Virus record (IMG/VR): IMGVR_UViG_3300022752_000020
Span: 1-64,000 of that record
DNA: 64,000 nt
Direction: 5' to 3' (one strand)
Source of the DNA: a virus
The notes below the pieces were generated by a model. That model saw nothing but the letters and a program-made list of their open reading frames with translations. It did not search any database and was not told the DNA's origin. Of the stretch, positions 1 to 47,290 are shown piece by piece. The first letter of the stretch is position 1, and the number at the start of each line of letters is the position of its first letter. A program made the translations under genes and the position numbers.

Positions 1-540
1 AATAAGTAAAATATATTTGTCTAAAGAGAAACTTTCGCCTTCTTGATACTGTATTTCGCACCGATACAGATTACTTTCATGCCATACATGTTGCCCTACT
101 AGATAAGGCAAATTTGGATACCATTTGACAATATCAATTCCTTGATAGATATGTTCAAAATCATCTGTATTAAATTGATAGCTATCCGAGGTGGTTTTAC
201 CTCGTAAAGGTTGTATATAATCCAGACGTAAAGGTTGTATATAATCCAGACCTTCTGCTATTTTTTTCCAAATAGAATGTTCATAATAAACTAGACTGCC
301 TACAGGATATTGATAATTTGGATTAAAATTTCCTATATCAGACTGATGAACTACCTTAATTAAGATATCAAAATAATCTTTATAATTAGGAAATTGCTTT
401 ATTAGCCAATCGAAACTATCTGTGACAAGGGCTATAGGAACATTCAAATGCTTTTTAGCCTGCTTTGCAGCATAGACAGCTATTTCAGTATAATCAATCT
501 GCTCGTTATTTAGAGCATACATTAATATACCTTTACTCAT
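1..540 (-). CDS. Partial (runs off left edge) putative glycosyltransferase-like protein with inserted CBM5/12-like modules
   Basis: Not in the ORF track. ATG at 540 overlaps the end of the 533..883 ORF and the frame stays open to position 1: MSKGILMYALNNEQIDYTEIAVYAAKQAKKHLNVPIALVTD... The N-terminus resembles GT-A sugar transferases. Modules FNPNYQYPVGSLVYYEHSIWK and WYPNLPYLVGQHVWHESNLYRC follow. Confidence 0.6.
   Translation of the reverse strand, partial: MSKGILMYALNNEQIDYTEIAVYAAKQAKKHLNVPIALVTDSFDWLIKQFPNYKDYFDILIKVVHQSDIGNFNPNYQYPVGSLVYYEHSIWKKIAEGLDYIQPLRLDYIQPLRGKTTSDSYQFNTDDFEHIYQGIDIVKWYPNLPYLVGQHVWHESNLYRCEIQYQEGESFSLDKYILLI
203..250. repeat. Perfect 24-bp tandem duplication (LDYIQPLR x2)
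   Basis: cgtaaaggttgtatataatccaga at 203-226 and 227-250, in frame in the minus-strand CDS. Confidence 0.95.
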
Positions 541-17514: not shown

Positions 17515-18273
17515 TTAACCAATAACAAGAGTATACCCTGTACCACCTGCTACATAAGTATCAACTTCTTTCTCTAATTTTTCAATTTCTTCTTTAGCAG
17601 CATTTTTTAAATCCGCACCATTTAATCCACCAGCTCCACCTGGGCCAGCTATTTGACCAAACTTACTACGTGCTTCTCCTAGCATTAATTTACAATTGGC
17701 CAAAGTATAATCTTTGAACCATTGACTAGCATAAGTGTCCTGTAATAAGATATAATCTGGTCTGTGATTATAACCTCTGATTAAGACCTGTTCACCATCC
17801 CCATAACTACGTTGTAAAATACGTAGAGTATGTGTAGTTGGTATCCATTGAAATTCAATAAAAGCACCAAACATACGCCCTACTAGTTTTTGATATTGAG
17901 CAAACATATCATAAGTAGCTATACCACCTAACATAGTACTATTCAGTAGATATGTGTTTGTATAGGCTAGATTGAATGGTTCAAACTGTGTACCACCACT
18001 ACCACCTGCTGTTCTACTACCTATGGTACGTCGAAATATGCTGCGTACCTCTATAATTTCTTTGGGTAATCTGTAGTCGTTAGTATCTTCTTTCAACTCT
18101 AAAAAATAGTAAGCTTCTTCTACAGCATTTGGACTTTTTTGACGATACTTGGCCAAGGCACGATCTAGAGCTATTTCATAGTGATCTGGATCAAGTTCCA
18201 CATCGACCATACCGTCACCTAACATTAATCTACAATATTTGTATATTTTTTCACGCTCTTGTAATGTAGTCAT
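17515..18273 (-). CDS. Neck protein (T4 gp13-like)
   Basis: LG...VDVELD, W.KDY.LA.CK..LGEARSKF...GP.G...LNG motifs. The ORF-track ATG at 18288 is only 2 nt from the TAAATA motif; the ATG at 18273 has a GGAG SD, so I prefer it. Confidence 0.8.
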   Translation of the reverse strand: MTTLQEREKIYKYCRLMLGDGMVDVELDPDHYEIALDRALAKYRQKSPNAVEEAYYFLELKEDTNDYRLPKEIIEVRSIFRRTIGSRTAGGSGGTQFEPFNLAYTNTYLLNSTMLGGIATYDMFAQYQKLVGRMFGAFIEFQWIPTTHTLRILQRSYGDGEQVLIRGYNHRPDYILLQDTYASQWFKDYTLANCKLMLGEARSKFGQIAGPGGAGGLNGADLKNAAKEEIEKLEKEVDTYVAGGTGYTLVIG

Positions 18274-18290
18274 ATTTGCTGTCTCCATGA

Positions 18291-18310
18291 TATTTATCTG
18301 CTGATAAATA
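18291..18310. promoter_or_regulatory. Back-to-back divergent late promoters
   Basis: Perfect inverted repeat TATTTATC-TGCT-GATAAATA between the divergent gp13 and gp14 genes. Confidence 0.7.
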
Positions 18311-18314
18311 CCTT

Positions 18315-19619
18315 ATGCCCCGCATAAGTTTATATCGCCCAGAACGTGGAAATGATTACAAATTCATTGATCGTCAAATCAGTGAAATGTTTACTGTTGG
18401 CGGAACAGATTTTCATCTACACAAATATATTGGTGTGAATACGGCTCCAGAAAATGCCACAGCAGATCAGCCTCACTATGCTGAAACTAAAGAAAGCAAT
18501 ATACAGGATTTAATCCTATTGGAGAATCGTGACAGAAAATATGATCCCAGCATTTATAAAATAAGGGCTCATTACCAAGTACAAAATTTAGATTTTAATC
18601 TTAGTCAATTTGGTTTGTTTATAGATAATGATACTATTTTTGCTACAGTACATATAAACGATTGGATACGTACCGTGGGGCGTAAACCAATTAGCGGTGA
18701 TGTATTTGAAGTGCCTCATCTTGTAGACGAATATGCTCTAAATGATTATAATATAGCACTACCTAGATACTTTGTCATAGAGGATGTTAGTCGTGCTAGT
18801 GAAGGATTCAGTCAAACTTGGTGGCCACATTTATACAGATTAAAACTTAAGAAAATAGTAGACGGTCAAACATTTGCTGATATATTAGATAAACCTGCGG
18901 GTGAAAATACTAATCAAACACTACGTGATATTCTAAGTACGAAGTCTATAGAACTACAGGTCAACGAAGCCATCATAGCCCAAGCAGAAGCTGACACTGC
19001 TAAAAACGGATTTGAAACTAGACAATTTTATACTCTAGCAGTTGATCCAGTTAGTGGTGATCCTATAATTGAAACTGCTGATCAAATGAGTATAGACGCT
19101 AGTAATACGGGATTAGATTCAAGTAGACTATTAGGCCGTGCCACACGTAGCGGTTATGCTGGTTATTTGCTGGGAGATGGGTTCCCGCCAAATGGATATG
19201 AATTTGGTCACGGTATAACTTTTCCTAATAATGCTTACTTAAATGATTACTTTTTAAGAATAGATTTTAGTCCAAATAGACTTTTTAGATTTGATGGTCA
19301 GAGATGGGTTAAGGTGGAGGATGCTATACGTCATACTCTAACCAGCACAGATGCTAACTTTGCTACACCAAGAGGTGTTTTCAATGAAAATACATCTTAT
19401 GTACTTAATGATTTAATAAATTATGGCAACGTTCAATACATAAGTATAGTACCTAGCACAGGAAAGAATCCTATAGACTTTCCTAATTTTTGGAAACAGG
19501 TTAGAACTACACAAAAAACAGGCTTTATTAACAATGTTAATGCCAGCGTTATTAATGGAGAACTAGTTCCAGAACGCCAAGCATTGAGTAAGGCTCTAAG
19601 ACCTAAGGCAGATTTATAA
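18315..19619 (+). CDS. Neck/head-closure protein (T4 gp14-like) with a C-terminal CBM-like insert
   Basis: Divergent from gp13; IQDLILLENRDRKY, LSQFGLF, GRKP.SGDV.E.P motifs; module RGVFNENTSYVLNDLINYGNVQY..W at about 19371-19500. Confidence 0.7.
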   Translation: MPRISLYRPERGNDYKFIDRQISEMFTVGGTDFHLHKYIGVNTAPENATADQPHYAETKESNIQDLILLENRDRKYDPSIYKIRAHYQVQNLDFNLSQFGLFIDNDTIFATVHINDWIRTVGRKPISGDVFEVPHLVDEYALNDYNIALPRYFVIEDVSRASEGFSQTWWPHLYRLKLKKIVDGQTFADILDKPAGENTNQTLRDILSTKSIELQVNEAIIAQAEADTAKNGFETRQFYTLAVDPVSGDPIIETADQMSIDASNTGLDSSRLLGRATRSGYAGYLLGDGFPPNGYEFGHGITFPNNAYLNDYFLRIDFSPNRLFRFDGQRWVKVEDAIRHTLTSTDANFATPRGVFNENTSYVLNDLINYGNVQYISIVPSTGKNPIDFPNFWKQVRTTQKTGFINNVNASVINGELVPERQALSKALRPKADL

Positions 19620-19821
19620 TGCATATCTATAAGTTTACTCATATTGAAACAGGCAAATGTTATATTGGACTCGAAAGGACGGTGGTGCTATGAAAGGAAA
19701 GTATCAATCAAAAGACACAAAAGAAAAAATGAGAGATGCACATTTAAAATCAACTCATTGTCGAGGTAAAACATGGAAGCTCGTAGATGGTAAACGTGTT
19801 TGGATGGAGGCCTCGGTTTAA
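19619..19821 (+). pseudogene. Decayed GIY-YIG / NUMOD3 homing endonuclease (internal deletion plus frameshift)
   Basis: 19619-19693 encodes MHIYKFTHIETGKCYIG... (GIY-YIG motif). 19690-19821, in another frame, encodes MKGKYQSKDTKEKMRDAH...GKTWKLVDGKRVW (NUMOD3-like). The catalytic core is missing. Confidence 0.8.
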
Positions 19822-19836
19822 CGCCGTTGAATTATT

Positions 19837-21465
19837 ATTCAGTTTTTCTATGATGGTCAAATAAGAAGATATCTAGTACAAACTATACGACTATTAAGTA
19901 AATTTGTAGTTAAGTATGGAGATGGTAGACTAGTACCTGTACCTGTTATGTATGGTGACATGGATCGTCAAGTGGCCAACATAATTAAACAAAATAGTGA
20001 AAATAAGATAAACGGTGCTCCACGTATAGCAGTTTATATTTCACAATTAGAAATGGATAAGGAACGTCTCGCTGATCCTACATATGTTGGCAAAGTACAT
20101 ATTAGAGAACGTGCTATAGAAGATGGTGTATATACCAGTTCAGAAGGTGCTAATTATACAGTAGAAAGACTTATGCCTAGTCCATATAAACTCACTGTAA
20201 AAGCAGACATTTGGGCAGGAAACACAGAACAAAAATTACAGATCCTTGAACAAATACTAATGTTATTCAACCCTAGTTTAGAAATACAGACTACAGATAA
20301 TTATATTGATTGGACTAGTCTCAGTGTAGTATATTTAGAACAAGTTGATTTTAGTAGTAGACAAATACCAGTTGGTCAGGATAGTCCAATTGATATAGCC
20401 AGTTTAACCTTTAGTATGCCTATCTGGATAAGCCCTCCTAGTAAGGTTAAGAAATTAGGCGTTGTTCAAACTATAATGATGGGTATGTACACTAATATAG
20501 GTAGTCCAGCAGAAGGATATTTAGAAGGGTTTGGGCTAGATCCAAATGAAGGAACTAGACCGTTATATGATCAAGTACCAAATCCTATCAGTGTTAATAT
20601 TATTGATTATAGCCTAATAGTTTATAGTGGTAAAGCTAAAATTTTTTCACCCACTAAAGAGGGTCATTTACAACTACGAATAACTGAAACTGGTATAGAC
20701 AGCACTATGAATGTAAGCTGGTATGAGATAATGGAAAAATGGCCCAATGCTTATAAACCAGGATTAAGTAAAATATTTCTAATTCAACCTAGTGGGTTTG
20801 AAGTAATAGGTACTATTGCTATTAATCCTTTGGACCCAAGTATATTAGATATTAATTGGGATCCAGATACTTATCCTAGTAATACAGACATAATTACAGG
20901 TTATAGAAATAGTGCAGGAACTTTTGATGCTATTATTGATCCGCAAACCAAAGGTCCAAATCATGGCTTACCAATTCCTAGTATAGGAACAAGATACTTA
21001 ATTATTAATAATATAGGCGGTGGAGTAAGAGAAACTCTTATTGCTGATCGTGTAAGCAATAGAATAGATACCAATGTAGATTATAATAGAGTAAGAGGTA
21101 TAGAAGTTTATGTCAATGATGTGGCTGTAAGTTTTAGTGATCTTGACATAGATAGTAAACTAGTTATAAGATTAACTAGAGATGCTGATATAGATGACAT
21201 AATAACCTATGTTTTATATGTTGATCAAGATGGCCCAGATGCTTGGAAAAATTTAAACGGTACAGATTTTATAGCCAGCACAAACGATATTATTGAATGG
21301 AACGGATCTAAATGGTCTATAATATTTGACAGTCAAGCTAATAGAGATAATATTAAATACCTTACTAACATACATAGTAATGTACAATATAAGTGGGATG
21401 GTATAAGCTGGGTTAAAAGTTTTGAGGGCGAATATAGAAAAGGTAGCTGGCGATTAATTTTATGA
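19837..21465 (+). CDS. Tail sheath stabiliser / tail terminator (T4 gp15-like), probable non-canonical ATT start
   Basis: The frame is open from TGA(19828-30): ATT ATT ATT CAG TTT TTC TAT GAT GGT..., giving QFFYDGQIRRYL..VPVMYG. Later ERLMPSPY and QILEQIL.LFNP motifs. The ORF-track ATG at 19948 lies inside the conserved region. Confidence 0.75.
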   Translation: MQFFYDGQIRRYLVQTIRLLSKFVVKYGDGRLVPVPVMYGDMDRQVANIIKQNSENKINGAPRIAVYISQLEMDKERLADPTYVGKVHIRERAIEDGVYTSSEGANYTVERLMPSPYKLTVKADIWAGNTEQKLQILEQILMLFNPSLEIQTTDNYIDWTSLSVVYLEQVDFSSRQIPVGQDSPIDIASLTFSMPIWISPPSKVKKLGVVQTIMMGMYTNIGSPAEGYLEGFGLDPNEGTRPLYDQVPNPISVNIIDYSLIVYSGKAKIFSPTKEGHLQLRITETGIDSTMNVSWYEIMEKWPNAYKPGLSKIFLIQPSGFEVIGTIAINPLDPSILDINWDPDTYPSNTDIITGYRNSAGTFDAIIDPQTKGPNHGLPIPSIGTRYLIINNIGGGVRETLIADRVSNRIDTNVDYNRVRGIEVYVNDVAVSFSDLDIDSKLVIRLTRDADIDDIITYVLYVDQDGPDAWKNLNGTDFIASTNDIIEWNGSKWSIIFDSQANRDNIKYLTNIHSNVQYKWDGISWVKSFEGEYRKGSWRLIL

Positions 21466-21896
21466 AAGATTTAATTGTTTGTAGTGGTGCATTATTTTAC
21501 GCAAAAAAAACTGAAAAAATTTTATTACTACAAAAAGCAAATGGACGACATAAAGGAACTTGGAGTCTAGTTGGTGGCACTGCTCAAAACAACGAAAACC
21601 CTTGGAAAAATCTTATAAGAGAAATAGAAGAAGAAATAGGATTTATGCCAGAAATTAAAAAAAGTATGCCCTTAGAAACATTTGTTAGCAATGATCTAGT
21701 GTTTAATTTCCATACTTTTCTTTGTGTAGTGGATAAAGAATTTATTCCTAGCTTAAGTAGTGAACATATAGGATATAGTTGGACTACAATTGACTATGCT
21801 CCTAAACCTTTACATCAAGGACTACGCAGTAGTTTCAGTAATAGATTAATTAGGAATAAATTACAAACTGTTTTTCAAGTAATGAATATAATCTAA
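21462..21896 (+). CDS. Nudix hydrolase
   Basis: Nudix box G-x5-E-x7-REIEEEIG. Confidence 0.9.
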   Translation: MKDLIVCSGALFYAKKTEKILLLQKANGRHKGTWSLVGGTAQNNENPWKNLIREIEEEIGFMPEIKKSMPLETFVSNDLVFNFHTFLCVVDKEFIPSLSSEHIGYSWTTIDYAPKPLHQGLRSSFSNRLIRNKLQTVFQVMNII

Positions 21897-27844: not shown

Positions 27845-30800
27845 TTACAATTGTGCTACTCTACTTTGGAAGTCTGCGAAATCTGCGCTGGCTGCTACCA
27901 CGCTCTTAAATGTGGCCAGTGACAGTGTTCCAATAGTTCCGTCTATACCTTGTGCTCCAGTTGAACCTTGTGCTCCGGTTGAACCTTGAGTACCATCTGT
28001 ACCTTGTGGTCCTGGTAATCCCTGTAAACCTGTATCACCTGTAGTACCTTGGGCACCTGTAGCACCATAGTATCCTTGGAAGCCTTGTATACCTTGTTGT
28101 CCCTGTATACCTTGTTGTCCCTGTGTACCTTGGATACCTTGTTGTCCCTGTGTACCTTGGATACCTTGACGACCTTGTATACCTTGTTGTCCCTGTATAC
28201 CTTGTTGTCCCTGTGTACCTTGGCTACCTTGCGTACCCTGCTGCCCTTGGATACCTTGCGTACCCTGCTGACCTTGGATACCTTGCGTACCCTGCTGACC
28301 TTGGATACCTTGTTGTCCCTGTGTACCTTGCTGACCTTGGATACCTTGTTGTCCCTGTGTACCTTGTTGTCCCTGTATACCCTGTTGTCCCTGTGTACCT
28401 TGTGTACCTTGTTGTCCCTGTATACCTTGTTGTCCCTGTGTACCTTGGATACCTTGCGTACCCTGCTGACCTTGTATACCCTGTGTACCTTGTTGTCCCT
28501 GTATACCTTGTTGTCCCTGTGTACCTTGGATACCTTGACGACCTTGTATACCTTGTTGACCTTGGATACCTTGGATACCTTGTTGTCCAGCTGGATCAAA
28601 AGTTACTATTACTCTTTGACCGGCAGTGGGCGAACTACCATCTGTATCTACAAATGTTACACTTAGACTATACCATGTTGTGTTATTAGTTACAGCAGTA
28701 AGTGTACCTATCCATCTTACACCTGGATTACCTTCAGCAGTTAGTGTAACTGTTCCATGATAGCTATTAGCAGTTCCATAGTTAGTAAATGAGCTTAACC
28801 AAGTTGCACTAGCATTACCATCTGCATCAGTAGCACTGATATTAATTGTAGTACTTGTTCCTGTTGTAGTCCAAGCACGACCTAGAGCAACATCACTTGC
28901 ACCTGGGTCTACTACTGTGTTACCTGCATCCCATAAGTATGGTTTACTATTACCGCCGGCTGTACCAACAATACCTTGGATACCTTGACGACCTTGTATA
29001 CCTTGTTGACCTTGGATACCTTGTTGACCTTGGATACCTTGCTGTCCTTGGATACCTTGCTGTCCCTGTATACCTTGTTGTCCTTGGATACCCTGGATAC
29101 CTTGTTGACCTTGGATACCTTGCTGTCCCTGTATACCTTGCTGTCCCTGTATACCTTGTTGTCCTTGGATACCCTGCTGACCCTGGATACCTTGAATACC
29201 TTGAATACCTTGACTACTAATTTGATCCCAGTTAGCTGATTGATTTGGTGTTCCAGTAGCTCCACTTCCGTTGGTACTTGTATGAGCAACTTTACAAATA
29301 TAACTTGTACCTTGATAGAACACCATATCATTTACAGCATATGCTGTTGCTGCAAATGTTGTAGTATAGTTACTCCATACACCTTTCCAAGTTACACCAA
29401 AACCTTGTATACCCTGAATACCCTGCTGACCCTGAATACCCTGCTGACCCTGAATACCCTGTTGTCCCTGGATACCTTGTTGTCCTTGGATACCTTGCTG
29501 ACCTTGTATACCTTGTATACCTTGTTGTCCAGCTGGGGCAAATGCCACGCTCATTCTTGTGTCTAGAGCAGGAGCAGTGCCATCAGTCTCTATGAATGTA
29601 CAAGTAACAGCATAATATGTAGTTTGATTGCTGACAGCAGTTACACGACCAATTAAGCGTTTTGTTGGGTCACCGTTTACAAACAGGCTTAATGTGCCAA
29701 AATAACTACTGCTTGTACCAAATCCACTTAATGAGCTTAACCAGCTAGTTGTTGTATTTCCATCAGCATTACTATTGTTTAGATATACACTAAAGTTTGT
29801 GCCAGCTGTCCAACTTGTGCTTATTCTAACTTTGTTAGCTGTTGTTCCTGCTGCTGTTGATGATGAATCAAATAACCAATCTTGACTGTATCCACCAGCT
29901 GTACCATATATACCTTGTATACCCTGTTGTCCTTGGATACCTTGTTGTCCTTGGATACCTTGTTGTCCTTGGATACCTTGTTGTCCTTGGATACCTTGTT
30001 GTCCCTGTGTACCTTGGATACCTTGCTGACCTTGTATACCTTGTATACCTTGTTGTCCAGCTGGGGCAAATGCCACGCTCATTCTTGTGTCTAGAGCAGG
30101 AGCAGTGCCATCAGTCTCTATGAATGTACAAGTAACAGCATAATATGTAGTTTGATTGCTGACAGCAGTTACACGACCAATTAAGCGTTTTGTTGGGTCA
30201 CCGTTTACAAACAGGCTTAATGTGCCAAAATAACTACTGCTTGTACCAAATCCACTTAATGAGCTTAACCAGCTAGTTGTTGTATTTCCATCAGCATTAC
30301 TATTGTTTAGATATACACTAAAGTTTGTGCCAGCTGTCCAACTTGTGCTTATTCTAACCTTATTAGCTGTTGTTCCTGCTGCTGTTGATGATGAATCAAA
30401 TAACCAATCTTGACTGTATCCACCAGCTGTACCATATATACCCTGTATACCTTGGCTACTAATTTGTTGCCAAGATGTTGATGATGACTGTGGATATCCT
30501 GTTGCTGTATTAGCATTATTTGTACTTGTATGAGCAGTTACGCAGATCCAGCTTGTGCCTTGATAGAACACCATATCATTTACAGCATATGCTGTTGCTG
30601 CAAATGTTGTAGTATAACTACTCCAATTTCCTTTCCAAGTTACACCAAAACCTTGTATACCCTGAATACCCTGCTGACCCTGAATACCCTGCTGACCCTG
30701 AATACCTTGTTGTCCCTGGATACCTTGTTGTCCTTGGATACCCTGTTGTCCCTGGATACCTTGGATACCCTGTTGTCCAGCTGGGGCGAAAGATAATACT

Positions 30801-33800
30801 AGTCTCTCATTAGCACTTGGTGCAGTACCATCTGTTTCAATATATGATACTGTTAATGTATAGATACTTGATGCAACAGAAACAGCAGTTAATCTACCAA
30901 TCCATCTACGAGCTGGATCTTTTTCAACAAATAAACTTACTGTGCCAAAATAACTACTGCTTGTACCAAATCCTGATAAACTAGCTAGGAAGTTAGTATT
31001 ATCATTACTATCAGCATTGGTTGTATGTACATAGATACTTGTACTTCCTGCTGTAGTAGTAGCCCAAGCACGACCTAATCTAACTTGAGTAGCCGTCATG
31101 CCTGTTGTATCTGTAGCAGTGCTAAACAACCAATTACTGCTATAACCACCAGGGCTACCTACTATACCCTGTATACCCTGTTGTCCCTGAATACCCTGTT
31201 GTCCCTGGATACCTTGGATACCCTGTTGTCCCTGGATACCTTGAATACCTTGACTACTAATTTGTTGCCAAGATGTTGATGATGACTGTGGATATCCTGT
31301 TGCTGTATTAGCATTATTTGTACTTGTATGAGCAGTTACGCAGATCCAGCTTGTGCCTTGATAGAACACCATATCATTTACAGCATATGCTGTTGCTGCA
31401 AATGTTGTAGTATAACTACTCCAATTTCCTTTCCAAGTTACACCAAAACCTTGTATACCTTGTTGTCCTTGGATACCTTGTTGTCCTTGGATACCCTGTA
31501 TACCCTGTTGTCCAGCTGGGGCAAAAGATAATACTAGTCTCTCATTAGCACTTGGTGCAGTACCATCTGTTTCAATATATGATACTGTTAATGTATAGAT
31601 ACTTGATGCAACAGAAACAGCAGTTAATCTACCAATCCATCTACGAGCTGGATCTTTTTCAACAAATAAACTTACTGTGCCAAAATAACTACTGCTTGTA
31701 CCAAATCCTGATAAACTAGCTAGGAAGTTAGTATTATCATTACTATCAGCATTGGTTGTATGTACATAGATACTTGTACTTCCTGCTGTAGTAGTAGCCC
31801 AAGCACGACCTAATCTAACTTGAGTAGCCGTCATGCCTGTTGTATCTGTAGCAGTGCTAAACAACCAATTACTGCTATAACCACCAGGGCTACCTACTAT
31901 ACCCTGTATACCCTGTTGTCCCTGTATACCCTGTTGTCCCTGTACACCCTGTATACCCTGTTGTCCAGCTGGGGCAAATGCTACACTTAATCTTGTGTCT
32001 AGAGCAGGAGCAGTGCCATCAGTCTCTATGTATGTACAAGTGACTGCATAGTATGTTGTTTGGTTGCTAACAGCAGTTACACGGCCAATTAATCGTTTTG
32101 TTGGGTCACCGTTTACAAACAGGCTTAATGTGCCAAAATAACTACTGCTTGTACCAAATCCACTTAATGAGCTTAACCAGCTAGTTGTTGTATTTCCATC
32201 AGCATTACTATTGTTTAGATATACAACAAAGTTTGTGCCAGCTGTCCAACTTGTGCTTATTCTAACCTTATTAGCTGTTGTTCCTGCTGCTGTTGATGAT
32301 GAATCAAATAACCAATCTTGGCTATAGCCGCCAGCTGTACCATATATACCTTGTATACCCTGTTGTCCTTGGATACCCTGTTGTCCTTGGATACCTTGGA
32401 TACCCTGTTGTCCTTGGATACCTTGACTACTAATTTGTTGCCAAGATGTTGATGATGACTGTGGATATCCTGTTGCTGTATTAGCATTATTTGTACTTGT
32501 ATGAGCAGTTACGCAGATCCAGCTTGTGCCTTGATAGAACACCATATCATTTACAGCATATACTGTTGCTGCAAATGTTGTAGTATAACTACTCCAATTT
32601 CCTTTCCAAGTTACACCAAAACCTTGTATACCCTGAATACCCTGTACACCTTGTACACCCTGTACACCCTGTACACCCTGTACACCCTGTACACCTTGTA
32701 CACCTTGTACACCCTGTACGCCTTGTACTCCTTGTACTCCTTGGATACCCTGAATACCTTGACTGGTCATCTGGCTCCAATATGTACTGTTAATTATAAG
32801 TGTCTTGTTAACATTATCAAATACAGCAGGTCTAATATTAAAGAATACTGTTGCACCATTACTATGGCTTGCTGCTATTGTTGAACTTGCACCTCTAGTT
32901 AATCCATTTAGAGTGTTGACTGATTTACTAGTATATGTGATATACTCATTATCAATAACAATTTGACCTGAACTTGGGAAAGCACTGGCATTAGTCAATA
33001 CAATTGATGTTGAACTTGCTGTTATTGCTCCGTTTAATGTTGTACTTGTGCTACTGAATGATCCATTTGAGAATGGGTAAACAGCAATATATGAAGCACC
33101 ATCATAGAATACAATATCATTTTGAGTGTATGTAGTAGAAGTATTGAAAATACCTCTATAAGTTACACCAAGACCTTGAATACCCTGTACGCCTTGTACG
33201 CCTTGTACGCCTTGTACGCCTTGTACGCCTTGAATACCCTGTACGCCTTGTACGCCTTGTACACCCTGTACACCCTGTACACCTTGTACACCTTGTACAC
33301 CTTGAACGCCCTGTACACCTTGTACGCCCTGTACGCCCTGTACACCTTGAATACCTTGAATACCCTGTGAACCTGCTAGCTCCCATCTTTCTAAATCAGA
33401 CTCGGGACTTGGACCAATTGCATTATAAATTGTACTTGTATGATAATTAGGAACATAAGTTGGGAGATAGAAACTAATACCTGTACTTGTACCTGCTGTA
33501 CTGGTTATAGTTGCTCCATCTGCTCTAAATGTAATTGCTCCATTAGTTGTTGCTGAAGTGCTTATGGTAATTTGAGTAGCACTATCTACACTAACAATAG
33601 TTGGGGCTCCATTGAAAACACCAGTACCTGATGTTTTGGTTAAAACCATTCCAGCATATAACAATGTTGTACTGGCTAATCCAGTTATTGTTGTACCAGT
33701 TAATGTACCTGTTAAGTTGGTTCTTGGTGCAGTTAAACTCAGTGTTACTGTAGTACGGCCAGCACTAGGTGTGTTAACAGCAGCAGTCTTGACATAGTAT

Positions 33801-36800
33801 ATTACTCCTGTGCTTGAATAGCCTTGTAATACTCCTGTACCAGTCTTGGTATTAATACCATATAAGACCTGACCTACAGCAGCAGCACTTGTTGGATTAT
33901 CAAAGCTGATTTGACCACTACTTAGTATTGATACATTGGCCAATAACTGTGGTGTATATTGTGACAAGCTAACATATGTACTACCCAAGTGTGAAACCAT
34001 ATCACTAACAGCATAGTCATTCTCTGGCTTCCAAACACCACGCCACTTAAAGCCTGAACCTTGAATACCTTGTTGACCTTGTACACCTTGAACGCCTTGT
34101 ACGCCCTGTACACCCTGTACGCCCTGTACACCTTGTACGCCCTGTACGCCCTGAACACCTTGGACACCTTGACGTCCTTGTACGCCTTGAACACCTTGAA
34201 CGCCTTGTACGCCTTGAACACCTTGAACGCCTTGGACACCTTGTACGCCCTGAACACCTTGAACGCCTTGGACACCTTGTACGCCCTGAACACCTTGAAC
34301 GCCCTGTACACCCTGTACACCTTGTACACCCTGTACACCTTGCACACCCTGTACACCTTGTACACCCTGTGTAGTTAATTGATTCCAATATGTAGTATTG
34401 ACATAGAAACCACTGGTATTTGGTGTACCATATGCAGGTCTTGTATCTAATAATACCCTTGCACCATTGCTATGTGTTGATGCTGTAGTTCCTTGATATC
34501 CTCTTGTTGTTATAGTTAATGTATTACCTACTATACCATTATACAACATTCTTTCAGCAGTAGCAGGCATTGAGTCTATTGATGCTGCACTGGCTACACG
34601 AATTACACCGCTAGTTGGGAATCCTACTACACTTGTTAATGTTATAGTACTCTGATTTATAGTTGTGATAGCAGCACTTAATGTTGTACTTATGTCACCT
34701 CTAAATGTCCCACTTGAGAATGGATAAACAACAACATAACTTGATCCATCATAGTATACAACGTCGTTTTGAGTATAGTCATAATTATTAACATAGGTGC
34801 CTCTCCAAGTAAAGCTTAAACCTTGAATACCTTGTACACCCTGTACTCCTTGTACACCTTGTACACCCTGTACTCCTTGTACACCCTGTGCTCCTTGTAC
34901 ACCTTGTACACCCTGTACACCTTGTACACCCTGTACGCCCTGTACACCTTGTATGCCTTGAATACCTTGGCTTGTTAATTGATTCCAGTAAGTTGTATTA
35001 ACTATTAGTTGTTTTGTACCTGCATTGTATATTGAAGGTCTTGTGTTCAACCAAACTGTAGCACCATTATTATGGCTTGCTGCTACAGTACCGTCGGCAG
35101 CCCTTGTTAATCCGCTTAAGGTATTTGAGGTCTTTGTAGTGTATGTAACATATTCATTATCAATAACTACCTGACCTGAGCTTGGGAATAAGCTAGCATC
35201 AGTTAATACTATTGATGTTGAACCTGCTGTAAGAGCTCCGTTTAATGTAGTACTAGTATTACCAAATGATCCGTTAGTATATGGATATACAGCAACAAAT
35301 GCAGCACCATCATAGAATACAATATCATTTTGAGCATAGCTTCCAGAAGTTGTCCAATTACCTTTGAATACTAATCCAAATCCTTGGATACCTTGTATAC
35401 CTTGTGTACCCTGTACGCCCTGTACACCCTGTACACCTTGAACTCCTTGAACTCCTTGAACTCCTTGAACTCCTTGAACACCTTGAACACCCTGAATACC
35501 TTGTGTACCTTGAACACCCTGTAGACCCTGTACACCCTGTACACCCTGTACACCCTGAATACCTTGAATACCTTGTGTACCTTGAACACCCTGTACACCT
35601 TGACGACCCTGTACACCTTGTACACCTTGGATACCCTGAATACCTTGGATACCCTGCGTACCTTGAACACCTTGAACACCTTGTACTCCTTGTGTACCTT
35701 GTACACCCTGTACACCTTGTACGCCTTGAACGCCCTGTACACCTTGAACACCCTGTACACCCTGTACACCCTGTACACCCTGTACACCCTGTACACCTTG
35801 TACGCCTTGTACACCTTGAATACCTTGACGTCCTTGTACACCTTGTACACCTTGTACTCCTTGTACACCCTGAATACCTTGTACGCCTTGTACACCTTGT
35901 ACACCTTGTACACCTTGGACACCCTGTACACCTTGTACACCTTGAACGCCCTGTACGCCTTGTACGCCTTGTACGCCTTGTACACCCTGTACGCCTTGAA
36001 TACCTTGTTGACCCGCAGGCTGGAAGCTGATTCCTAATTTTTGTCCAACTATTGGTGGTGTTCCTGCACTATCAACAAATGTTAATTGTAGTCTAAAATA
36101 ACTTGCATAATCAAATACTGTGGTTATAACACCTGTCCAACGCTGTAAAGTAGCACCTTCTGGCATAATTGTTATAACACCAAAATAACTACTTGAACTA
36201 CCAAAGAACTTAATAGAATTTACCCAAGCTGCACGATCTTGTCCATCAGCATCGTATTTGTCAAGATTAACGTATACTTGGCCACCGGTTTGATCTGTCC
36301 AAGCACGCTCAATTGTAACATTACCTACTCCTGGATCGCCAATAGCTGTACTATTGCTCCAAGCATAATTAGCTGTATAACCACCAGGAGTACCAATAAT
36401 ACCTTGTATACCTTGTACGCCTTGTATACCCTGAGTACCTTGTATACCTTGTATACCTTGTACACCTTGTATGCCTTGTATACCTTGTGTTCCTTGTACT
36501 CCTTGAACACCTTGGACTCCTTGGACTCCTTGAACACCCTGTATGCCCTGTATACCTTGAATGCCCTGTATGCCCTGTATGCCTTGAATACCCTGAACAC
36601 CTTGAGCACTAATGATCAACCATGGAACAGCTTTAAATGTTAATCCTGTTAAGCTACCTGTTCCAGTTGTTAAGATTGAAGCTACAGCAAATTGACTTCG
36701 TCCAAGGCTAAATGTTGTAGTTGGATTATTTGGATAATCAATTACATAATAATCATTATCAATTTTATCGCCAGCAGCATAAAAGGTTGGAGCTAGTGCA

Positions 36801-39800
36801 GGACTATCTGGATTCTCAATGGTAAATCCAACTGGTACTATACCACTTACTCTAATAATTTCTGATTTATAAATGTCTACTGGATTACAACTGAATTGAC
36901 CATTTCCAGTTAAGCTAACATTTGATAAAGGTACAGTTTGACCAGGAATTTGACCTACATTTACATAGGCGCCACCGGTATAAGTTTCATCACCATATGT
37001 ACTAGTATATGCTGATCCATTATAATATACAGAATCATTCTTAATGTATCTTGAAATTGAGCTCCACTCACCTAAGAATGTAAATCCTTCACCTTTAGTG
37101 CCTTGGAAGCCTTGTACACCTTGGATACCCTGAATACCTTGGATACCCTGCGTACCTTGAACACCTTGAACACCTTGTACTCCTTGTGTACCTTGTACAC
37201 CCTGTACACCTTGTACACCTTGTACGCCTTGAACACCCTGTACTCCTTGTACACCTTGAACACCCTGTACGCCTTGTACACCTTGAACACCCTGTACGCC
37301 TTGTACACCTTGAATACCTTGAATACCTTGGACGCCTTGGATACCTTGATTGCCTTGTACGCCTTGTACGCCCTGTACACCCTGTACGCCTTGAACGCCC
37401 TGTAGACCCTGTACACCTTGTACACCTTGAACACCTTGTACGCCTTGAACACCTTGTACACCTTGAATACCTTGGACGCCTTGGACGCCTTGGACGCCTT
37501 GGACGCCTTGGACGCCTTGATTGCCTTGTACGCCTTGTACGCCTTGTATACCCTGAATACCTTGTGTACCTTGTACGCCTTGTACGCCTTGTACGCCTTG
37601 AACGCCTTGTACACCTTGTACACCCTGTACGCCTTGGACGCCTTGGACGCCTTGGACGCCTTGGACGCCTTGGACGCCTTGGACGCCTTGTAAACCTTGG
37701 CTGCTCATTAAATTCCAATAGGCTGTATTATCTAAAGTAGGCTCTTGACCATTCCACGAACCTAAAGTGCTTACTCCTATCCAACTAGATCCTTTATAGG
37801 ATACAACATCATTAAAATTATATGTTGTAGTAGAATTATAAATTCCTCTCCAAAGAATACTGAATCCCTGTATACCTTGAACACCTTGAACACCCTGTAC
37901 GCCTTGGACGCCTTGAACACCTTGGACGCCTTGTACGCCTTGTATACCCTGTACGCCCTGTACGCCCTGTACACCTTGACGTCCTTGTACACCTTGTACA
38001 CCTTGTACGCCTTGTACGCCTTGTACGCCTTGGACACCTTGAACACCTTGAACACCTTGAACACCCTGTACGCCCTGTACGCCCTGTACGCCCTGTACGC
38101 CTTGAACACCTTGTACGCCTTGGATGCCTTGGATGCCTTGGACACCTTGGACACCTTGGATGCCTTGAGCAGATACTTGATTCCAATAAGTTAGTGAAGT
38201 TAAAGGTATATTTCCTAAATTATTAGATTGAATAGCTATATAGGAACCACCACTGTAATAGACTACATCATTGATAGTATAACTTAAATTGGCTAGCCAA
38301 TCACCTCGCCATGTAATTCCAACACCTTGAATACCCTGTACACCCTGTACACCCTGTACGCCTTGTACGCCTTGTACGCCTTGTACGCCTTGTACGCCTT
38401 GTACGCCTTGTACGCCTTGTACGCCTTGTACACCTTGTACGCCTTGTACACCTTGGATACCCTGACGACCCTGTACACCTTGAACGCCCTGTACACCTTG
38501 GACACCTTGAACGCCCTGTAGACCCTGTACACCTTGTACACCTTGTACACCTTGTACACCTTGGATACCCTGAATACCTTGGATACCCTGAATACCTTGA
38601 TCACCCTGTACGCCTTGTACACCCTGTACACCCTGTACACCCTGTACACCTTGTACACCTTGAACGCCTTGAACGCCTTGAACGCCTTGTACGCCTTGTA
38701 CGCCTTGTACACCTTGTACACCTTGAATACCCTGTACACCCTGTACGCCTTGTACACCCTGTACGCCCTGTACTCCTTGTACACCCTGTATACCTTGAAT
38801 ACCCTGAATACCTTGATCGCCCTGTACGCCTTGTACACCTTGTACGCCCTGTACTCCTTGAATACCCTGAATGCCTTGGATACCCTGAATACCTTGATCA
38901 CCCTGTACACCTTGAACGCCTTGTACACCTTGAATGCCTTGAATACCCTGTATACCTTGAATGCCCTGTATGCCTTGGATACCTTGGCTAGCCAAGGTAT
39001 CCCAAACAGTTGATCCTACTGTAGGTATATTACCTAGATTAACTGTTTCACTTACGCTGATCCAAGAACTGCCGTTATAAAATACAGCATCATTTTTAAT
39101 GTATTCCTTGGTTACATCGTACATTCCTCTCCAAGTTACACCGCCACCTTGAATACCCTGTTGTCCTTGTACACCTTGGATACCTTGTACACCTTGTACA
39201 CCTTGTACACCTTGTACACCTTGAACGCCTTGTACACCTTGTACACCTTGAATACCTTGAATACCCTGTATTCCCTGTATACCTTGGTCACCCTGTACGC
39301 CTTGTACACCTTGTACACCTTGAATGCCCTGTATACCCTGTACGCCTTGGATACCTTGATCACCTTGTACGCCTTGTACACCTTGTACACCTTGTACACC
39401 TTGAACGCCCTGTATACCTTGGATACCTTGGACACCCTGTAGACCTTGGACTCCCTGTAGACCTTGTACACCTTGGATGCCCTGTATACCTTGAATACCT
39501 TGAATACCTTGATCACCCTGTACGCCTTGTACACCTTGTACACCTTGAATACCCTGGATACCTTGGATGCCCTGTATACCTTGATCACCCTGTACACCCT
39601 GTACACCTTGTACGCCTTGTACACCTTGTACACCTTGTACACCCTGTACACCTTGGATACCTTGAATACCTTGGATACCCTGTATACCTTGATCACCTTG
39701 TACACCTTGTACACCTTGAACGCCTTGAATACCCTGTACACCCTGTACACCCTGTACACCCTGTACACCCTGTACGCCTTGAATACCCTGTACGCCTTGG

Positions 39801-42800
39801 ATACCTTGAACACCCTGACTAGCTAATCTTTCCCAATAACCATCGTTATCTTGTGGTCCTGGAATTGCTGCTGGATCATTTATTCCTTTTGGAACTCCCT
39901 CGACTCCAGAATAACGTACTATCCAACTATTGCCGTCATAGAATACAACTTCGTTTTGGAAATATGTAGTATTAAAATCATAATATCCACGCCAAATGAC
40001 ACCAAATCCTTGGATACCTTGAACGCCCTGTACTCCCTGTACACCTTGAATACCTTGGGTACCTTGTACACCTTGTACACCTTGAATACCTTGAACGCCC
40101 TGTATACCCTGTACACCTTGGATACCTTGTAAGCCCTGTACACCTTGGATGCCTTGTACGCCTTGAACGCCCTGTATACCTTGAATGCCCTGTACACCTT
40201 GTACACCTTGTAAGCCCTGTACACCTTGGATGCCTTGTACGCCTTGAACGCCCTGTATACCTTGAATGCCCTGTATACCTTGATCGCCTTGTACACCCTG
40301 TACACCTTGAATACCCTGTACACCTTGAATACCTTGTGTACCTTGTATACCTTGTGTACCTTGTATACCTTGAAGGCCTTGGACGCCTTGTATACCCTGA
40401 ATACCTTGTACGCCTTGTACACCTTGTACGCCTTGTACACCTTGTACGCCTTGTACACCTTGGATACCTTGTACACCTTGTACGCCTTGTACACCTTGTA
40501 CGCCTTGTATACCCTGAATACCTTGTGTACCTTGTACACCTTGTACGCCTTGTACGCCTTGAACGCCTTGTACACCTTGTACACCTTGAACACCCTGTAC
40601 GCCTTGAACGCCTTGGACGCCTTGGACGCCTTGTGTACCTTGTACACCTTGGACGCCTTGTACACCTTGTACGCCTTGTACACCTTGGACACCTTGTACA
40701 CCTTGGACACCTTGTACACCTTGGACGCCTTGGATGCCTTGTACGCCTTGTACGCCTTGTACGCCCTGTACACCTTGTACACCTTGTACGCCTTGTACAC
40801 CTTGAACGCCTTGTACGCCTTGTACGCCTTGTAAACCTTGGGCAGTCATTCTAGCCCAATATGTGCTATTTAGAGTTCCTGGCTCTCCATATACTCCAAT
40901 AACCTCAGGTACCTCACCACTAAACTGACTTCCAGGTACATCATATGGATCAATTGGCCAAACAGCAATAAAACTAGTACCATTATAATAAACTACATCA
41001 TTTTGTTGGTACTGTGCAGCATTATTATAAATGCCTTTCCATACAATACTAAAGCCTTGAATACCTTGAACGCCCTGTACACCTTGGACTCCTTGGACTC
41101 CTTGGATACCTTGCAATCCTTGGACACCCTGTATACCCTGTACACCTTGTACACCCTGAGCAGCAATGATATCCCAATCTGAACCTAATGTTACTGGAGG
41201 CAGATTTCCTAAATTATCCATAATTAAGGATACATAGGATTCCCCATTATATCTTACAGCATCATTCTTAGCATAAGATTCTGTTGGGACCCATTGACCA
41301 CGCCAATTAAATCCAAGACCTTGAATACCTTGTTGACCCTGTACACCCTGTACACCTTGAACGCCCTGCACACCTTGAACGCCCTGCACACCCTGTGTTC
41401 CTTGTACGCCTTGAACACCCTGTACGCCTTGAACACCTTGTATACCTTGTGTACCTTGGATACCTTGTTGTCCTAGTACACCTTGAATACCTTGTACACC
41501 TTGAACGCCTTGTAAACCTTGAATACCCTGTATACCTTGGTCACCCTGTACACCTTGTACGCCTTGTACGCCCTGTACACCTTGGATACCTTGGATGCCC
41601 TGTATACCTTGATCACCCTGTACACCTTGAACACCTTGAACACCTTGAACACCCTGTACACCTTGAATACCCTGTATTCCCTGTATACCTTGGTCACCCT
41701 GTACACCTTGAACACCCTGTACACCCTGTACACCTTGGATACCTTGAATACCTTGGATACCTTGATCACCCTGTACACCTTGTACACCTTGTACGCCTTG
41801 TACACCCTGTACACCCTGTACGCCTTGTACACCCTGTACGCCTTGTACACCCTGTACGCCCTGTACGCCTTGTACACCCTGTACGCCTTGAACGCCTTGA
41901 ACGCCTTGAACGCCTTGGACGCCTTGGACACCTTGTGCTGTCATGCGCTCCCAATAAGTATCATTTACATCGCCTGGACTAAATTCTGGAACTTGATTAC
42001 TAAACTTTCCATAAGGAGATGTTAGACTAATTGGATAAACAGCAATAAAACTATTACCGTCATAATAAACTACATCATTTTGTGAATACTCTACGTCTGG
42101 TTGCCAAATACCACGCCATGTAAAGCTAAAACCTTGAATACCCTGTACACCCTGTACGCCTTGTACGCCTTGTACACCTTGAACACCCTGTACACCTTGG
42201 ATACCTTGTACACCTTGGATACCTTGTACACCTTGTAAGCCCTGTACACCTTGAATACCTTGATCACCCTGTACACCCTGTACACCCTGCACACCCTGTA
42301 TACCCTGTACACCCTGTACACCCTGTACACCCTGTACACCTTGGATACCTTGGATACCTTGGATACCTTGGATACCTTGGATACCTTGGATACCTTGATC
42401 ACCTTGGACACCTTGTACACCCTGTATGCCTTGTATGCCTTGGATACCTTGGATACCTTGAATACCCTGAATACCTTGATCGCCCTGTACACCTTGAACG
42501 CCTTGGACACCTTGAATACCCTGAATACCTTGGATACCTTGGATACCTTGATCACCCTGTACACCCTGTACACCCTGTACACCCTGTACACCCTGTACAC
42601 CTTGGATACCTTGAATACCTTGGATACCTTGGATACCTTGATCACCCTGTACGCCTTGTACTCCTTGTACACCCTGTACTCCTTGTACACCCTGTATACC
42701 TTGAATACCCTGAATACCTTGATCGCCCTGTACACCCTGTACACCCTGTACACCTTGTACACCCTGTACACCCTGTACACCCTGTACACCCTGTACACCT

Positions 42801-45800: not shown

Positions 45801-47290
45801 CAATGAGCATCCTCTGTCACTGGCCATTCTGGTGGTTCATTATTGAAATTGTTATCGTGTAAACTAATCCAGCTGCTACCTCTGTGGTAAACAACATGAT
45901 TAGTGTAATATGCTACATTTGGATACCACTGACCTTGCCATAAAATACTGAAACCTTGGATACCCTGTATACCCTGTATACCTTGTACGCCTTGAATACC
46001 CTGTATACCTTGTATACCTTGATCACCTTGTATACCCTGTACACCCTGTACACCCTGTACGCCTTGTACACCTTGGACTCCTTGTACACCCTGTACGCCT
46101 TGTATACCTTGTACACCCTGTACGCCTTGTATACCTTGTACACCCTGAGCAGCAACAATATCCCAATCTGTTCCAAGATATAAATCAGGTTGTTTGCCTT
46201 GATTAAATCTTGTCAAACTTACATAACTGAAACCATTATAGTAAACGGTATGATTTATATCATAGACACCATCTACGCTCCAAGTGCCTTTCCATTGGAA
46301 GCCAACACCTTGAATACCCTGTACGCCTTGTACGCCTTGTACACCTTGTATGCCTTGTACGCCCTGTACACCTTGAACGCCTTGGATACCCTGACTGGTC
46401 GATTTTTCCCAATTATTACTACCAAAATATGGTCTATTATTAATATTATTATCAGTGATACTTACCCAGCTACCACCATCATAATAAACCATATCTCCAA
46501 TAAAATATTCAGCAGTAGGAGCCCAGTATCCTTTCCATAAAATACTGCGTCCTTGAATACCTTGAATACCCTGGATACCTTGTAAGCCTAAGTCACCCTG
46601 TAAACCCTGTGTACCTTGTGGTCCCTGTGGTCCCTGTGGTCCTAAGCGACCTTGTATACCTTGAATACCCTGTGGTCCTTGGGCTGTCATTATCTGCCAA
46701 TAAGCACTACCTACAAATGGAGCAGGTTGTCCTTGATTGGGCTGTAGAGCTACCCATGATCCACCATTATAATATACAACATCATTAAAGCTATATGTTT
46801 CGCCTGCTTGCCAAAGACCACGCCATACAAAGCCTAAACCTTGAATACCTTGTTGACCTTGTATACCTTGACGACCTTGAATACCTTGTGGACCAAGACC
46901 ACCTTGTATACCCTGTATACCCTGTATACCCTGTATACCCTGTAGACCACCACCACTAGTAATAGCAGCATAACCAGCTTGTGGACTGGAAAATACAACA
47001 CGAATATTACCAGCATCCAAAAATTCAATATATGGACTTCCTGGTAAACCCTCTCTTATACTTTGTTTATTAAGATCGCTGAGTTGTACAACAACAATTT
47101 CAGCGCCTAATCGATGATTAATTTCCCATACTGTAGCAGCAGTAAGTTGTTTGTGTAGGAAGAATCCACCAACAGCACTATCACCTTGGAGACCTTGAGC
47201 ACCTTGGGCTCCTTTTTCTCCAATCATTACGGAGCGCCAACCGTCTTGGACTCCTTGTATGCCTTGGAAATATCGCTTTAGTACACTCAT
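27845..47290 (-). CDS. Giant collagen-like (Gly-X-Gln) fibre protein with CBM5/12-like beads
   Basis: 6481-aa uninterrupted ORF. GVQ/GIQ/GQQ tracts are separated by 24 WxGxW/Y..Y..NDxVxYxGxS(W/Y) modules and 7 domains of about 128 aa. AGGAG SD for the downstream gene follows the stop. Confidence 0.9.
27940..46945. repeat. Interrupted 9-bp microsatellite-like coding repeat (consensus CCTTGTACA)
   Basis: Encodes the Gly-X-Gln triplets; higher-order units occur, e.g. an 81-bp period at 44461/44542/44623. Confidence 0.95.
29531..32623. repeat. Near-identical dispersed cassettes within the collagen-like gene
   Basis: A (about 384 bp): 29531, 30059, 31967. B (about 390 bp): 30779, 31514. C (about 200 bp): 30451, 31251, 32423. 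Confidence 0.9.

Follow-up and report, generated by a model that had tools for sequence, protein, structure and literature searches.

A GIY-YIG endonuclease cassette at the start of a phage gene 15 homologue as a possible source of its translation initiation region

Introduction

In bacteriophage T4, the Shine-Dalgarno (SD) sequences of genes 38 and 25 are split from their start codons, and the spacing is reduced from 22 to 5 nt for gene 38 and from 27 to 11 nt for gene 25 (PMC3014915; Nivinskas et al. 1999; Malys and Nivinskas 2009). Free-standing homing endonucleases of the seg and mob groups embed expression signals for essential neighbours, for example the gene 32 promoters inside segG (PMC2988022), and T4 mobA travels with a 50-nt bypass cassette (bioRxiv 10.1101/2022.08.31.505936). 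The near-cognate codons AUU, AUA and AUC initiate at approximately 0.1–3% of the level of AUG in Escherichia coli, and infC and pcnB start with AUU (bioRxiv 10.1101/063800). Here, we describe a junction at which features of all these systems may come together. It lies in a 64,000-nt stretch of viral DNA, positions 1 to 64,000 of the IMG/VR record IMGVR_UViG_3300022752_000020 (hereafter the window), between a virion structural gene in the gene 14 position and a homologue of T4 gene 15 (gp15, the tail sheath stabiliser or tail completion protein). A GIY-YIG homing endonuclease cassette is inserted between the gp15 ATG and codon 2, and it is moderately probable that the 3′ end of this cassette now supplies the initiation region of gp15. 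The individual pieces of such an arrangement are known. A literature search found no description of this junction or of this combination of elements, namely the capture of a start codon together with a replacement, long-spacing, non-AUG module that outlives the endonuclease.

Results and Discussion

The cassette lies exactly between the gp15 ATG and codon 2

Orthologous loci were collected by protein homology and yielded 158 unique junctions. An empty junction, in which TAATG is followed directly by codon 2 (CAG or CAA), is found in 135 of the 158 unique orthologous contexts and has the sequence ...GATTTATAATGCAGTTT... The form TAATG-CAG-TTT, which the initial annotation had predicted for orthologues without the insert, is present in 66 of the 72 nearest loci. 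Twenty junctions in this homology-based sample are occupied, and every insert is located exactly between the gp15 ATG and codon 2. In the window, 218 nt separate ATG 19619-19621 from gp15 codon 2. The TAA stop of the gp14-position gene (19617-19619) overlaps this ATG, giving TAATG at 19617-19621, and the ATG opens MHIYKFTHIETGKCYIG..., a reading frame halted by TGA 19691-19693.

The inserts are recognizable as endonuclease genes. In L001, an intact 175-aa open reading frame (ORF) starts from the TAATG, scores 26.2 bits against PF01541 (cut-off 22.6) and matches the PHROG annotation "homing endonuclease" with an E value of 3e-26. The endonuclease of L139 scores 24.1 bits against the same cut-off of 22.6, and intact endonuclease genes are found at this site in L101, L103, L113 and L129 as well as in L001. 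The window copy has lost the GIY-YIG catalytic domain and retains residues 1-18 and 124-175 of the intact homologue; these are the only endonuclease residues that survive in the window's own 159,920-nt record, which holds no second copy. The window insert is a GIY-YIG remnant and not a member of the family.

The presence and absence of the insert are polymorphic among relatives at one conserved site outside any intron, and an Rfam scan of positions 18000-21500 (E up to 1) returned no intron or other match. The insertion of a free-standing GIY-YIG cassette at this precise point, after the gp15 ATG and before codon 2, is confirmed. The claim that an endonuclease had taken the gp15 ATG is borne out by the empty junctions and by the intact gene in L101, and all sequence statements and coordinates of the initial annotation hold.

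The DNA of the empty junction, ...CCTAAGGCAGATTTATAATGCA... (window 19596-19625; L002-L080), is conserved to an unusual degree across gp15 lineages that share 45-75% protein identity. This sequence is a plausible recognition site for the endonuclease.

A conserved module ahead of gp15

The 3′ end of the cassette forms a module that recurs among relatives. We number it from the first G of GGAGG, so that position n corresponds to coordinate 19805+n. Pattern scans together with the homology sample gave 42 sequence variants, with some of the counts made over 41; codon and identity counts refer to 43 unique 94-nt sequences (the 12-nt-spacer class). All 42 variants lie directly ahead of an ATG-less gp15 at a fixed distance, and the set spans dozens of viral contigs in at least 16 samples. 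The module begins with GGAGG, followed by a 4-bp hairpin whose loop contains the endonuclease stop codon; then come an invariant G, an AU-rich linker of 7 nt, a single codon and gp15 codon 2 (Table 1). Mean pairwise identity is 33% in the 24 nt upstream of the module, 96% in the SD, 94% at positions 6-21, 53% in the linker and 48% at gp15 third codon positions. Three variants contain 1 extra nt, located between the hairpin and G24, which leaves the 7-nt length of the linker unaffected. The 20 junctions retrieved by protein homology alone carry an identical core, and the recurrence of the module before ATG-less gp15 genes is far beyond chance.

The gap between the end of GGAGG (19810) and the beginning of ATT 19837 is 26 nt; other genes in the window have GGAG or AGGA 5-10 nt before their ATG, and a host that reads SD sequences is therefore likely.

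Other roles for the block formed by the SD and the structured spacer were considered. Its origin as the native gp14 C-terminus in some clade was ruled out, as the ORFs upstream of it encode endonucleases with two subtypes of C-terminus. No terminator or sigma-70 promoter stood above background in the block, and a late-promoter or leaderless reading of the spacer was discarded because a transcript beginning there would be without a start codon. A metagenome pattern scan, which was too loose, returned mostly GC-rich chance matches and four gp15 junctions, none of them new.

Table 1. Features of the gp14-position/gp15 junction in the window and the position-by-position composition of the 3′ module.
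Feature	Position	Strand	Remarks
gp14-position virion structural gene	18315-19619	+	ORF; PHROG 11591 "virion structural protein", E 4e-76; C-terminus kept in orthologous loci
GIY-YIG homing endonuclease, 5′ fragment	19619-19693	+	Former gp15 ATG; 24 codons; TGA 19691-19693; 89% identity to residues 1-18 of intact homologue
TTGGAC, retained copy of 6-nt direct repeat at deletion junction 19664/19665	19665-19670	+	Alignment to L101; identical gap against L001
Endonuclease, 3′ fragment	19690-19821	+	Ends at TAA 19819-19821, in frame with gp15; 77% identity to residues 124-175 of intact homologue
Putative SD, GGAGG	19806-19810	+	96% mean pairwise identity; variants keep pairing potential
Proposed whole structured spacer	19811-19829	+	Closing pair C19811:G19829, both bases invariant in 41/41
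Small hairpin CGGU-UUAAC-GCCG	19814-19826	+	Positions 9-21; TAA 19819-19821 in loop; pairable in 41/41 variants
8-bp hairpin GGTTTAAC/GTTGAATT	19815-19833	+	Alternative fold, mutually exclusive with small hairpin; -3.1 kcal/mol in window
Out-of-frame mini-ORF TTG AAT TAT TAT TCA GTT TTT CTA TGA	19827-19853	+	Starts directly after small hairpin
AU-rich linker	19830-19836	+	7 nt in all variants; 53% identity; 81% A/T, 5% G
Proposed gp15 initiation codon ATT	19837-19839	+	Near-cognate, presumably read by initiator tRNA
gp15 tail sheath stabiliser/tail completion gene, codon 2 to stop	19840-21465	+	Pfam PF16724, E 4e-26; PHROG 227/11196; orthologues in hundreds of viral contigs
Module, SD	positions 1-5		GGAGG; rarely CGAGG, AGAGG, GGGGG
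Module	position 6		C
Module	positions 7-8		Two variable bases
Module, hairpin	positions 9-21		CGGU-UUAAC-RCCG; endonuclease stop codon at 14-16 in loop
Module	positions 22-24		TTG 29, ATG 5, TCG 4, A+CTG 3 (of 41 variants)
Module	position 24		G, invariant
Module, linker	positions 25-31		Seven AU-rich bases
Module, proposed start	positions 32-34		One codon
Module, gp15	position 35 onward		gp15 codon 2

The position of the gp15 start

The gp15-frame codons before CAG 19840 are TAA (19819), CGC, CGT, TGA (19828), ATT, ATT and ATT. As the initial annotation had stated, the conserved N-terminus is preceded, after the last in-frame stop (TGA 19828-19830), only by ATT codons and by no canonical start. 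Position 2 of the PF16724 profile (T4 gp15 family) aligns to the residues directly after 19840. Codons 2-37, the 36 codons ahead of ATG 19948, show synonymous/non-synonymous codon differences of 14/4 relative to L001, 12/2 relative to L027 and 10/2 relative to L117. Because this segment is under purifying selection, gp15 is translated from at or just before 19840.

Among the 43 unique sequences, the codon at the start position is ATT in 11, ATA in 9, ATC in 8, ATG in one (L458) and TCG in 14. ATH is thus found at this position in 28 of 43, where the composition of the linker predicts it at a frequency of about 0.15. L458 differs at this codon from its ATA relative L328, and it disproves the working rule that the position is never ATG. 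Since the position is ATT, ATA or ATC in most variants and ATG in one, ATT 19837 is likely to be the gp15 start; the two ATT codons upstream of it are not conserved elsewhere. The proposal in the initial annotation that gp15 restarts at ATT is therefore strengthened for position 19837 by the 28 ATH codons and by the ATG of L458, and weakened by the 12 variants with UCG discussed below.

Among block-type junctions, L458 (103-150) alone has ATG as its start-position codon. A second ATG, at positions 22-24, opens a mini-ORF, ATG AAT TAA, that ends one base before the gp15 ATG.

Candidate RNA folds in the spacer

Two mutually exclusive folds could shorten the distance between GGAGG and ATT 19837, and either one would leave an effective SD-start spacing of approximately 7 nt. 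The small hairpin (Table 1) is the core of the minimum free energy structure in nearly all variants, at -3.0 to -3.3 kcal/mol, and is often closed by C6:G24. The only change observed in it is G18 to A, which keeps the pair with U12 (U.G to U-A). Being built from invariant bases, it is a hairpin that covariation cannot test.

The initial annotation had instead placed an 8-bp hairpin between SD and start. This hairpin does form in the window with the expected spacing of approximately 7 nt. However, it is not conserved: in other variants 5-8 of the 8 pairs can form, at energies from +8.6 to -5.5 kcal/mol, 81.7% of cells are paired across variants, and two of the pairs are broken in 27 of 41 and 15 of 41 variants. 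The smaller hairpin is the consistent fold. A UUCG tetraloop hairpin at positions 3-14 was ruled out, as position 7 varies among U, C, A and G, and a pseudoknot between loop and spacer was rejected, no consistent complement being found. The structural part of the model is plausible but unproven.

Recent deletion in the window and decay across relatives

The endonuclease was destroyed very recently in the window by a 325-nt microhomology deletion. L101, which encodes the full 175-aa endonuclease, is identical to window positions 19501-20000 at 499 of 500 nt outside the gap. The 325 nt were lost between two TTGGAC repeats, with the junction at 19664/19665, and the resulting shift of frame accounts for the early TGA 19691-19693 in the 5′ fragment. 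The frameshifted fragment stops in an ATGA overlap (19690-19693) whose ATG reopens the original endonuclease frame, and AAGGA is located 10 nt upstream.

Relatives contain the endonuclease in states that range from intact (with two C-terminal subtypes) through various deletions to a few codons or nothing. In the endonuclease-free state, the gp14-position gene stops 0-6 nt ahead of the SD. The 34-nt 3′ module is kept in every one of these states. Four states of the endonuclease coexist within the window sublineage (L117, 600-800; L027/L090/L099), in which the 34-nt module is identical or nearly so: the gene is intact in L101, carries the 325-nt out-of-frame deletion in the window, and is reduced to an in-frame remnant of 28 codons in L117 and to 12 codons in L027. 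The initial annotation had suggested that the ends of the insert persist because they serve as a replacement initiation region. Across the family, approximately 18 independent decays support such retention, for the 3′ end only. In the window itself, however, the persistence of both ends requires no selection, because the deletion is too recent.

Of the approximately 18 distinct remnants with a 5′ start, all but that of the window stay in frame as far as the loop stop codon. By our own estimate, such in-frame retention has a chance of about 1e-7 if the deletions are independent. The loop stop could be retained either because it feeds terminating ribosomes to gp15 or because it blocks upstream ribosomes from crossing the start, and the window remnant, which stops early at 19693, is compatible with both. 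In L346, the loop stop has been lost, and there is no upstream ORF either.

When the block and ATG states are placed on a tree of 188 unique gp15 N-termini, at least 24 changes are counted, compared with 41 when labels are shuffled. This distribution fits a homing element that has been gained and lost repeatedly.

Proposed mechanism and its alternatives

We regard it as moderately probable that the cassette supplies the initiation region of gp15, through an inserted endonuclease gene followed by GGAGG, a structured spacer and a start at ATT 19837. The endonuclease gene uses the old gp15 ATG, which overlaps the stop of the gp14-position gene. gp15 would be translated from a 34-nt region at the 3′ end of the cassette that comprises GGAGG, the weakly structured spacer (19811-19829), the 7-nt linker and ATT 19837. 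Folding of the spacer would shorten the 26-nt gap to approximately 7 nt, and the initiator tRNA would read ATT as a near-cognate start, so that gp15 with its normal N-terminus, Met-Gln-Phe-Phe, would be made at a low rate. Ribosomes arriving from upstream would be kept off the gp15 start by the loop stop codon, which may pass some of them on to it. In the window, the deletion destroyed the endonuclease and left the module untouched. Comparison among relatives shows how the insert is built, that the deletion occurred, that the module is conserved with a fixed geometry and that the gp15 N-terminus is translated. The roles of GGAGG as an SD, of the spacer as a folded element and of ATT as the start codon are inferred.

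Several observations weigh against this explanation. In 12 of 42 variants, the codon at the start position is UCG, and no in-frame near-cognate codon follows the last stop; near-cognate initiation is consequently not general. Ribosomes could be captured by a better start codon, TTG 19827, which follows the hairpin directly but is out of frame. The small hairpin is weak, at about -3.3 kcal/mol, shuffled sequences fold at least as well as the 86-nt region in the window does (z = +1.2), and no compensatory changes were found in either fold across 41 variants. Part of the apparent invariance of the block stems from pattern-based retrieval. The gp15 ORFs of the 12 UCG variants, which come from at least 16 samples, are full length (451-499 aa). 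All 12 have AUC exactly one nt out of frame (AUCG), and nine share an identical spacer, (T)TGTACTAAATCG, across divergent gp15 lineages. No single mechanism was found to cover all variants.

A termination-reinitiation relay, in which most gp15 would come from ribosomes that end upstream and, held by GGAGG, restart at ATT 19837, rather than from fresh binding of 30S subunits, is unlikely but is not to be neglected. The route would lead from the gp14-position gene through TAATG to the 24-codon ORF, through ATGA to a 43-codon ORF, and so to TAA 19819 in the loop. This series of coupled short ORFs is formally intact in the window, unbroken at TAATG 19617-19621, ATGA 19690-19693 and TAA 19819-19821. 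At termination, GGAGG would be positioned 5 nt 5′ of the P-site codon GTT. The in-frame remnants described above would be expected under a relay, as would the coincidence in L346, the sole variant without the loop stop and also without the upstream ORF; the retention of frame is equally well explained by a need to stop ribosomes before the gp15 start. In at least six contexts (L085, L127, L131, L170, L328, L346), no ORF that begins with ATG extends to the loop stop, the upstream gene ending 0-6 nt before the SD. A restart would still require a start codon, which leaves the UCG class unexplained. The relay and initiation from the cassette module are not mutually exclusive.

It is also possible, although we consider it distinctly unlikely, that distance alone sets the reading frame. 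The 24-nt SD-plus-structure block would then fix the P site 7 nt beyond the structure on whatever triplet is found there (AUH, AUG or UCG). In an alternative form, the initiator in the UCG class would pair with AUC one nt early, followed by +1 re-phasing (an "AUCG" start). gp15 initiation would thus occur on UCG or on a re-phased AUCG in approximately 30% of variants. Such a rule would account for an invariant linker length combined with a variable codon, and for the full-length gp15 genes of the 12 UCG variants with their AUC one nt out of frame. Divergent gp15 lineages and SD variants share one and the same UCG-class spacer, (T/C)TGTACTAAATCG. Between L081 and L112, which belong to one gp15 clade, the differences look as though two 1-nt indels had compensated each other, with the distance from the block to codon 2 unchanged, a pattern that cassette recombination could mimic. 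The enrichment of AUH and the one AUG show that codon identity matters in most lineages. In addition, we know of no bacterial precedent in which a codon mismatched to the initiator anticodon at two positions initiates efficiently.

Initiation at TTG 19827, directly after the small hairpin and at an effective SD spacing of approximately 3-5 nt, followed by a +1 frameshift into the gp15 frame within four codons, is improbable. Positions 22-24 are TTG or ATG in 34 of 41 variants, with CTG, shifted by one nt, in three more, and in nine variants the mini-ORF consists of a start, one or two codons and TAA-A, so that a ribosome shifting by +1 at the stop would come into the gp15 frame. However, four variants have TCG at positions 22-24, and the variants have no slippery motif in common. 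The mini-ORF varies in length from 1 to more than 20 codons, and neither its length nor the position of its stop is conserved. The window sequence TTG AAT TAT TAT TCA offers no +1 re-pairing, and the ATG of L458 at the -1 position points to direct initiation there.

That gp15 is N-terminally truncated or a dead gene is very improbable. ATG 19948 is the first canonical in-frame start, but the 36 codons upstream of it match the family profile from its second position with mostly synonymous differences, the Met at 19948 is conserved in ATG-type orthologues as well, and all block-type contigs contain full-length ORFs. The start at ATG 19948 that the initial annotation had weighed as an alternative is thereby set aside.

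Removal of the insert by RNA splicing, the other alternative raised there, or its skipping by a gene 60-like ribosomal bypass from the upstream ATG, would suit an insert placed exactly between ATG and codon 2, a stop codon in a hairpin loop and the mobA precedent, yet both are excluded by the sequence data: Rfam detects no intron, inserts are as short as 33 nt (L130, L150), an upstream ATG is missing from several variants, the frame of the upstream ORF is shifted in the window and no such ORF exists in at least six contexts, and the codons for take-off and landing do not match (GTT before the stop; ATT, ATA, ATC or TCG at landing). Bypass with GTT or TCG as the take-off codon was also tried, and the frames do not fit.

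Comparison with described systems and implications

The gp15 junction resembles T4 genes 38 and 25 in the distance of 22-27 nt between SD and start and in the intervening RNA structure proposed to shorten it, as well as in its setting at an intercistronic junction ahead of a late structural gene of a T4-type myovirus. In contrast to those genes, the proposed gp15 start is non-AUG, and the candidate structure, at about -3 kcal/mol, is far less stable; its sequence is invariant and does not covary. The gp15 element also arrived with a mobile endonuclease cassette and, with at least 24 state changes on the tree, has a scattered occurrence among gp15 lineages and is not a clade trait.

As with the T4 seg and mob genes, the cassette is a promoter-less GIY-YIG gene whose ATG overlaps the upstream stop (TAATG, compare UAAUGA at nrdA/mobE), and the host would depend on cassette sequence for a downstream essential gene, which would favour retention. 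The captured signal differs, being a translation initiation region with its start codon and not a promoter. Since only the last 34 nt of the cassette would be indispensable, the endonuclease gene can decay completely, and repeatedly does.

A similar relationship exists between mobA and gene 60 (bioRxiv 10.1101/2022.08.31.505936), where a short translation element travels with an endonuclease, rescues an interrupted essential gene and outlives the endonuclease. In both the gp15 module and the gene 60 bypass element, a stem-loop carrying a stop codon is combined with an SD-like motif and a 3′ part rich in A and U. Unlike the bypass element, the gp15 module has no take-off and landing pairs and no nascent-peptide dependence, and several lineages have no upstream ORF; the proposed function is initiation and not bypass.

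Finally, gp15 would be like infC and pcnB in having a near-cognate AUH start with no canonical alternative, and the low expected output would suit a protein needed in few copies. There is no evidence here for IF3 autoregulation, and AUU, AUA, AUC, AUG and UCG interchange among relatives.

If the proposed mechanism is correct, this junction would offer a clear example from nature of a selfish element that makes itself indispensable at the level of translation, one in which the phage must keep 34 nt of the cassette after loss of the endonuclease. It would extend the theme of the promoters embedded in seg and mob genes and of the mobA/gene 60 bypass cassette. If distance alone were to fix the P site, the result would be a largely start-codon-independent or quadruplet-like form of bacterial initiation, spread by a homing endonuclease. 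The dozens of natural long-spacing SD variants, with AUU, AUA, AUC, one AUG and the unexplained UCG, form a test series for start-site choice in bacteria. In all these phages, gene callers will shorten gp15 to ATG 19948 or overlook its N-terminal part.

Neighbouring genes and other gp15 junctions

A blastn search of positions 19000-20600 against cultured phages gave no match. The nearest isolates by protein are jumbo phages with 33-35% identity, and there is consequently no annotated reference junction. The gp14-position gene has no match in a Pfam search, and its ATG at 18315 has no SD within 25 nt. It is divergent from a head-tail adaptor gene (PHROG 211, 17515-18288, minus strand), from which it is separated by 26 nt. 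Elsewhere in the window, giant ORFs occupy the minus strand at 27845-47290 (6,481 aa) and 52623-63854 (3,743 aa).

Other solutions to the gp15 start are found among relatives. L334 and L367 (1170-1205 in both) have gp15 junctions with a TTG start and neither block nor endonuclease; in L334, the arrangement is TAGGAG, 7 nt and TTG. In L365 (1140-1220; IMGVR_UViG_3300032239_000728), a different endonuclease remnant occupies the gp15 site, and its 3′ end, TTAGGAGGT-TAGGTAA-GTG, forms a perfect SD-N8-GTG. This GTG is one base out of the gp15 frame, ahead of a run of seven T. The offset reflects either an error in sequencing the homopolymer or a -1 slip on U UUU UUU; eight T would yield the canonical M-D-F-F-Y-D-G.

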